NCBI GenBank assembly: GCA_017962565.1
Contig: JAGCVC010000001.1
Span: forward strand, 79,119 to 143,118
DNA length: 64,000 bases
Direction of reading: 5' to 3'
Origin: Alphaproteobacteria bacterium
GTDB lineage: Bacteria > Pseudomonadota > Alphaproteobacteria > CAAHEQ01 > UBA3637
This document shows, piece after piece, positions 11,160 through 11,250 of this stretch (its first letter is position 1; each line of letters opens with the position of its first letter). The position numbers were made by a program, and so were the translations under genes. Under the pieces are notes generated by a model. It saw nothing but the letters and a program-made list of their open reading frames with translations, did not search any database and was not told where the DNA came from.

Positions 11160-11250
11160 AGAAAAATAATTTTAAACGTTTAGAATATTATTTTGGGCAT
11201 AAAAATAATGCAATAGTTAGTATGCGCCAGCATACCAATCAACCGGACAA
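11160..11250 (+). pseudogene. GNAT acetyltransferase gene fragment (remnant of a paralog of the 16048..16564 gene)
   Basis: About 90 nt (TTTTAAACGTTTAGAATATTATTTTGGGCATAAAAATAATGCAATAGTTAGTATGCGCCAGCATACCAATCAACCGGA) align at roughly 80% with 16170-16258 inside the GNAT gene. The reading frame FKRLEYYFG..NNAI is conserved, then breaks. Confidence 0.5.

Follow-up and report, generated by a model that had tools for sequence, protein, structure and literature searches.

The window, a 64,000-nt stretch of DNA, comes from a host that its GNAT homologues and NCBI protein names mark as an uncultured, AT-rich Alphaproteobacteria MAG of rumen or gut samples. The locus under study comprises a short spacer, the genes on either side of it and those that follow downstream:

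10496..11092, minus strand: gene for a 198-aa protein (from the ORF list), with its start codon facing the spacer
11093-11309: spacer of 217 nt between the 198-aa gene and the S41 gene, 29% GC
11123..11158, plus strand: putative vestige (U') of the native GNAT upstream (promoter-side) region, from homology to the region upstream of GNAT in a ~95% relative
11157..11169, plus strand: putative deletion junction, from direct comparison of L018, L027 and the window
11162..11251, plus strand: GNAT remnant (r; blastn E = 3.6e-14, tblastn E = 9e-7)
11252..11309, no strand assigned: unique sequence that fills the rest of the spacer as far as the S41 stop codon (blastn-short)
11310..14171, minus strand: tandem-S41 gene, 953 aa, two peptidase S41 domains (Pfam PF03572, two stretches, E = 1.3e-29)
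14377..16044, plus strand: HExxH-MORN gene, 555 aa, an HExxH region plus MORN_2 repeats (PF07661, E = 5.8e-18)
16049..16564, plus strand: intact GNAT N-acetyltransferase gene, 171 aa (Pfam PF00583, E = 6.1e-16)
16561..17217, plus strand: gene for a 218-aa protein, overlapping the GNAT stop codon (gene calls in L012, L018 and L027)

The 198-aa protein matches no family in Pfam or NCBIfam and has only two homologues in a large protein collection. A promoter scan placed a promoter-like site for its gene at 11141-11113 on the minus strand, within U' and outside the remnant. At the other end of the spacer, the unique sequence (11252..11309) matched neither GNAT nor any of the fetched loci except same-strain contigs when it was searched by blastn-short against the window and those loci. 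The tandem-S41 and HExxH-MORN genes are divergent, with 205 nt between them. The HExxH-MORN protein is named "YwqK family antitoxin" by NCBI and has a weak match to DUF6782 (PF20573; E = 2e-4, under the cutoff). Its stop codon lies 4 nt from the ATG of the intact GNAT gene, which runs in the same direction; the original prediction had begun this gene at 16048, from where translation gives stops, and the ATG is at 16049. Because GNAT follows the MORN stop codon so closely and lacks a nearby promoter-like site of its own, it is probably co-transcribed with the MORN gene. The 218-aa gene also lies 3' of GNAT in the ~95% relative.

It had been proposed that ~90 nt of the spacer are homologous to the intact GNAT gene, with the reading frame preserved, and pairwise alignment of the spacer with GNAT bears this out. 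A repeat finder paired 11162-11223 with 16169-16230 (family D16; 84% over 62 nt), and blastn of the GNAT region against the 64-kb window matched 11162-11247 to 16169-16257 (78.7% over 89 columns, with one 3-nt gap; E = 3.6e-14). At the protein level, tblastn aligned GNAT residues 41-71 with 11162-11251 (17/31 identities and a one-codon gap; E = 9e-7) and returned no match in the 64-kb window beyond the gene itself and the remnant. The remnant corresponds to codons 41-71 of intact GNAT, in frame and short of one codon; its translation reads KNNFKRLEYYFGHKNNAIVSM-RQHTNQPDK against KHHFKRLEYYFGYENNAIIGICGVYADQPDE in the intact protein, and it keeps perfect matches of 25 nt and 14 nt to GNAT codons 43-59. 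Similarity ends abruptly at both edges. A chance match in AT-rich sequence is what the 29% GC of the spacer might suggest, but the match includes CAACCGGA and AATGCAATA and so is not low-complexity AT sequence; the second-best blastn match of the GNAT region in the window has an E value of only 0.11, the alignment is in frame, and the adjoining flank independently matches the GNAT upstream region of the relative. We therefore regard chance as practically discounted.

Measured against a functional GNAT, with its complete fold, start codon, acetyl-CoA motif and invariant core (ECWLGWFG...R84, G87), the remnant falls short throughout. It lacks the start codon, codons 1-40, the invariant ECWLGWFG block and the acetyl-CoA motif, and the residues G60, G63 and Y65, which occupy invariant columns of the GNAT alignment, have been replaced. 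Differences from the intact copy occur at 21/93 sites (23%), and 12 of these 21 changes are from G/C to A/T, as would be expected of decay in an AT-rich genome. Their distribution over codon positions (12/2/7; p = 0.03), examined as a possible trace of past selection, is confounded by the concentration of G/C at first positions and by AT-biased decay; it fits AT-biased decay of a coding sequence and does not discriminate. The remnant is evidently a dead, nonfunctional fragment.

Both genes flanking the remnant, for the 198-aa protein and for S41, are on the minus strand, and the remnant itself is on the plus strand, tail-to-tail with the S41 gene and antisense to its transcription. This arrangement might indicate that the fragment was kept for a new function, either as part of an S41 3' UTR antisense to the GNAT mRNA, to which it offers its 25-nt perfect match, or as upstream or terminator DNA for the S41 and 198-aa genes. 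Consistent with such a role, a search of the spacer found no consensus terminator, including between the S41 stop codon and the remnant, a small hairpin (GTATGC-GCCA-GCATAC) arose at the site of the 3-nt deletion, and the reading frame across the remnant is open for ~75 codons. Yet the predicted folding of the spacer is no stronger than that of shuffled versions (z = -1.26), the 198-aa gene has its promoter-like site outside the remnant, no in-frame start codon occurs 5' of the homologous part, and all available copies are identical. We consider retention for a function very improbable. All window-type assemblies have the same sequence across the entire spacer; L025, L026 and L013 proved to be this very strain (99.98-100%) and so contribute no variation. 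We likewise give little credence to the more elaborate ideas of a pseudogene-derived antisense RNA that couples the S41 protease to the MORN-GNAT operon, or of an S41-MORN mobile cassette with a target duplication of >200 nt. Correctly annotated, the spacer holds a gene remnant and not a regulatory element or a small gene.

Comparison with GNAT relatives points to the source of the remnant. Over 93 aligned bases it is 77 to 78.5% identical to the GNAT genes of the window and of the ~95% relative (L018), 70% identical to that of the next relative (L019, 80% protein identity) and 53 to 62% identical to the remaining GNATs. It also has the lineage-specific QPD codons (CAACCGGA) found in the window and L018 genes. 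Since the remnant is nearest to these two genes and has the QPD codons in common with them, it is derived from this lineage's own GNAT, and the suggestion that a second GNAT copy or partial copy, now decayed, once stood in the spacer is upheld.

The relative is represented by two contigs from different samples, L018 and L027, which are 95.5% identical to the window across the GNAT and 218-aa genes. In both, the intact GNAT is preceded by a noncoding stretch instead of the 3' end of the MORN gene, and homology with the window starts just 6 nt 5' of the GNAT ATG. Part of this noncoding stretch recurs in the window beside the remnant. L018:3-38 matches window positions 11125-11156 at 89% (E = 1e-6), a match of 36 nt only, which contains the exact 24/24 run TTTTTTCAAAGTAAAATCTGTTTT (E = 1.6e-8); it is the sole significant match of the 86 nt upstream of GNAT in L018 anywhere in the window, and it is confirmed by the second contig, L027. 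The relative-like flank abuts the 5' side of the remnant in the same order and orientation as in the relative. L018 also has a promoter-like site (TTGACT-16-TATACT) at 52-79 that ends 7 nt before the GNAT ATG and is absent from both window copies, at the remnant locus and at the intact GNAT. Approximately 161 nt are missing at the junction between flank and remnant, comprising the promoter-like site, the ATG and codons 1-40, and the motif at the join, GAAAA(A)TA(A)TT, occurs both in L018 at 43-53 and in GNAT codons 40-43. Together, remnant and flank are thus probably the vestige of a native GNAT locus beside the 198-aa gene.

Two further features of these contigs were observed. The divergence between the GNAT genes of the window (16043-16564) and L018 (81-602) is mosaic: 4 sites differ over the first 281 nt, against 20 over the 235 nt that follow, with tight clusters at +282-297 and +486-497; the near-identical part roughly coincides with the stretch duplicated at the remnant locus. 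This pattern may reflect recombination or gene conversion. L027 and L018 are 98.4% identical to each other as far as the 218-aa gene extends and completely different beyond it (L027 1248-1586, L018 1273-1540), L018 continuing like the window into a 386-aa gene on the opposite strand and L027 into a different plus-strand ORF, another structural difference among close strains.

The remnant and the intact GNAT form direct repeats on either side of a 4.9-kb segment that holds the S41 and MORN genes. When proteins are clustered at 90% identity, relative-type sequences, from several samples, fall in with the 198-aa, GNAT and 218-aa proteins, while the clusters of the S41 and MORN proteins contain window-type sequences only; additional contigs with the S41 and MORN genes are the same strain as the window, and the next tandem-S41 homologues are 54 to 57% identical. 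A search with a concatenated S41+MORN query worked for the S41 part, but its MORN part missed its own cluster representative (P0077), which was present in the collection, and the missing MORN matches in that search are no evidence of absence. Relative-type contigs with the 198-aa gene run as far as the counterpart of window position 11119, and L018 takes up at that of 11123. Taken together, these data suggest that the relative carries the 198-aa gene, the upstream region and GNAT in succession, without the 4.9-kb segment; the adjacency is pieced together from short contigs (0.76 to 1.6 kb), none of which spans the distance from the 198-aa gene to GNAT and all of which break close to an A7T8 run. 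For the 95% homologue of the 198-aa gene, the contigs stop 27 nt upstream of the gene, a 58% homologue (L017), searched for an intact GNAT nearby, lies in a different context without one, and a scan of JGI metagenome contigs for the shared 23-mer gave no match.

The adjacency of MORN and GNAT in the window would be lineage specific and secondary, because the relative's GNAT is preceded by the noncoding region that recurs beside the remnant. With an estimated probability of about 70%, we consider the best explanation to be that the 90-nt stretch is a nonfunctional vestige of a duplicate of the lineage's own GNAT, with part of its native upstream region kept. The spacer copy would once have held at least the upstream region and codons 1-71, divergent from the 198-aa gene. 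A microhomology deletion of ~161 nt between short direct repeats (GAAAA.ATA.TT) would then have taken the promoter, the start codon and the first 40 codons, and the sequence after codon 71 would have been replaced by unrelated sequence. The intact GNAT, for its part, would have lost its own promoter region and now begins 4 nt past the MORN stop codon. As the order of events we infer either an insertion that duplicated part of its target or an earlier duplication, after which the relative lost the segment. The repeat that flanks the segment is about 90 to 125 nt long, and because its copies are diverged by ~21% and one of them is internally deleted, the mechanism cannot be read from the sequence.

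The divergence values bear on timing. Third codon positions differ by 5.5 to 8.7% between the window and the relative, against 23% between the remnant and the intact copy, and the duplicate therefore seems to predate the split from the relative. A simple recent insertion would account for this only together with a subsequent loss in the relative, an import from a more distant donor or unusually fast decay. Accordingly, three scenarios could be envisaged, among which we make no choice: the common ancestor may have had both copies, with the relative losing the segment by recombination between the repeats; the vestige may have been imported with the segment from a more distant donor; or decay may have outpaced change at third positions.

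Import from a related donor, which would make the remnant xenologous and not an in situ duplicate, deserves separate consideration, and we hold it to be unlikely though far from negligible. The remnant and flank would have arrived together with the S41-MORN segment. In such a donor, GNAT and its own upstream region would have stood tail-to-tail with S41, and the incoming block would have replaced the promoter region of the recipient's GNAT. The excess divergence of the remnant over third positions would fit an import, as would the restriction of S41 and MORN to window-type assemblies, the break of the relative's contigs at about window 11119-11123, which is the left edge of the U-like stretch, and a tail-to-tail GNAT/S41 neighborhood in a distant MAG (L002). 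The MORN gene is also more AT-rich (27 to 29% GC) than its surroundings; the S41 gene is not, and base composition is not decisive on foreign origin. Yet among all sampled sequences the GNAT genes of the window and the relative are the nearest to the remnant, and U' is 89% identical to the corresponding region (U) of the relative, closer than the remnant is to GNAT, albeit over only 36 nt. Nor was any donor with such an arrangement found, and the 198-aa gene has no cluster of differences near its 5' end. A vestige of the lineage's own duplicate is the reading that we prefer.

The intact GNAT is clearly a member of the GNAT superfamily (PF00583, 59 bits against a cutoff of 20.7), with the acetyl-CoA motif region (R/Q-x-x-G-x-G/A) present and YRRKGYA in a conserved block at residues 82-89. 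The profile search proposed for its substrate class gave weak matches of the RimI/N-alpha-acetyltransferase type: in NCBIfam only sub-threshold matches to RimI, AAC(3)-I and generic GNAT families, and among PDB profiles N-alpha-acetyltransferases. The protein is tentatively a generic RimI/Naa-like enzyme, all matches being weak and under every curated cutoff. Its 60 homologues are mostly from Alphaproteobacteria MAGs. Upstream of the 54 to 80% orthologues lie genes for a PAP2 phosphatase, DUF4379, cation-efflux, FtsJ (divergent), GH3 glycosidase, DUF378 (divergent) or uncharacterized proteins, and the downstream neighbors likewise vary. A GTDB scan with the GNAT alignment returned 11 loci (37 to 63% identity), in which no synteny with the window was found except in L002, with an S41 homologue and 170-aa genes nearby. 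In that distant MAG a single-domain S41 homologue is found 1.7 kb from the GNAT orthologue; the two are tail-to-tail, with other genes between them. Across 12 GNAT loci, neither large gene recurs beside GNAT apart from this distant S41 homologue. No GNAT occurs within 10 kb of the 57% tandem-S41 orthologue, which sits between PTS genes and a cysteinyl-tRNA synthetase region. As a separate observation, L002 (201-3978), a yak-rumen MAG, has the GNAT orthologue, a hydrolase-like 221-aa gene and the S41 homologue within 4 kb, along with two fused copies of the 170-aa gene that the window has at 19886-20398; these gene families appear to form a loosely conserved, reshuffled neighborhood.

The original prediction had gone further and proposed that a two-gene functional module, a large polymorphic effector-like protein with a GNAT modifier or immunity partner 3' of it, was duplicated and that one GNAT copy decayed. 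By position, GNAT-derived sequence does lie past the 3' end of each large gene, and this part of the proposal stands; by strand it does not, as the remnant is convergent to S41 and the intact GNAT is co-directional with MORN. The L002 neighborhood and the NCBI name of the MORN_2 proteins could also be cited in favor of a module. Against it, the two large proteins are unrelated (best BLASTP E = 2.5), the duplicated DNA is limited to ~90 nt of GNAT and ~36 nt of upstream flank, and the ~95% relative has its GNAT without MORN directly upstream. Conserved linkage is missing from the 12 GNAT loci, whose neighbors are unrelated, the S41 homologue of L002 aside, and from the 57% tandem-S41 locus. We thus find a duplicated module highly unlikely.

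The associated idea of a toxin/immunity or effector/modifier pair is not supported either. In type II toxin-antitoxin systems with a GNAT toxin (TacT, AtaT, ItaT) the partner is an RHH/DUF1778 antitoxin, and both these and polymorphic toxin pairs resemble the window in having a ~170-aa GNAT gene right after another gene; the "antitoxin" in the NCBI name of the MORN_2 protein adds a likeness by name. Unlike TacT, AtaT and ItaT, the GNAT here has no small RHH/DUF1778-type partner: upstream of it is the 555-aa HExxH-MORN gene or, in the relative, noncoding DNA. It belongs to no curated toxin-type GNAT family in NCBIfam, PDB profiles or PADLOC. PADLOC gave no credible defense-family match for any of five proteins (GNAT, MORN, S41, 198-aa and 218-aa), its one borderline match being of the 218-aa protein to 4TM (E = 0.0099). 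Of the features of a polymorphic toxin locus, a 3', co-directional partner is seen just once, in the MORN-GNAT pair of the window; remnant and S41 lie on opposite strands, an orientation wrong for an operon, the large proteins are not paralogous, and conserved linkage is wanting in the 12 GNAT loci, at the 57% tandem-S41 locus and in the ~95% relative. The adjacency of MORN and GNAT should not be taken as a conserved effector/partner or toxin/antitoxin operon.

The remnant compares better with known forms of genome decay and rearrangement. Andersson and Andersson (Mol Biol Evol 2001) reportedly described "gene remnants" in the spacers of Rickettsia. Like the gene remnants of host-associated AT-rich genomes, the fragment is short, alignable in frame, truncated by deletion and marked by AT-biased substitutions and the loss of invariant residues. 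Unlike them, it has an intact paralogue only 5 kb away in direct orientation, and it has kept part of its native upstream flank, marking a rearrangement breakpoint and not the simple loss of a dispensable gene. The locus also resembles insertions and deletions flanked by direct repeats (partial target duplication, Campbell-type integration or loss by recombination), as two copies of the GNAT 5' part flank 4.9 kb and MORN is absent directly upstream of GNAT in the ~95% relative. In contrast to mobile insertions, the segment shows none of the marks of a mobile element: a domain search found no integrase, transposase or recombinase domain in its two genes, and a repeat search found no inverted repeats at its ends. 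The remnant is an ordinary scar of local duplication or rearrangement. With its flank it marks a breakpoint, and the S41 and MORN genes belong to a lineage-specific 4.9-kb segment. It provides a small handle on the genes that vary between closely related strains and opens no long-standing question.

The tandem-S41 and HExxH-MORN proteins are candidates for secretion or for interaction with the host in an uncultured alphaproteobacterium of the rumen. No obvious signal peptide is present in the HExxH-MORN protein (14377-16044). The matches of its N-terminal region, to the DUF6782 metallopeptidase family and the XopG/HopH type III effector family, are weak and sub-threshold, and its MORN part resembles the LIC20035 adhesin family. 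Elsewhere in the window, an intergenic element is repeated at 868-1007, 1756-1795 and 3191-3330, with one 140-nt pair 81% identical. Its 40-nt core, CCAGCCAAGTTG..AAGTCGTC....GACGACTTTTT, occurs three times and includes a hairpin followed by T residues, like a common terminator or a small repeat element. In-frame tandem repeats are present in coding regions at 3467-3745 (minus strand; units of 87 to 99 nt in a 101-aa ORF), 15394-15704 (plus strand; 72-nt MORN units), 26633-26812 (36-nt units, at ~26.7 kb) and 37048-37614 (units of 102 to 123 nt, at ~37.2 kb).
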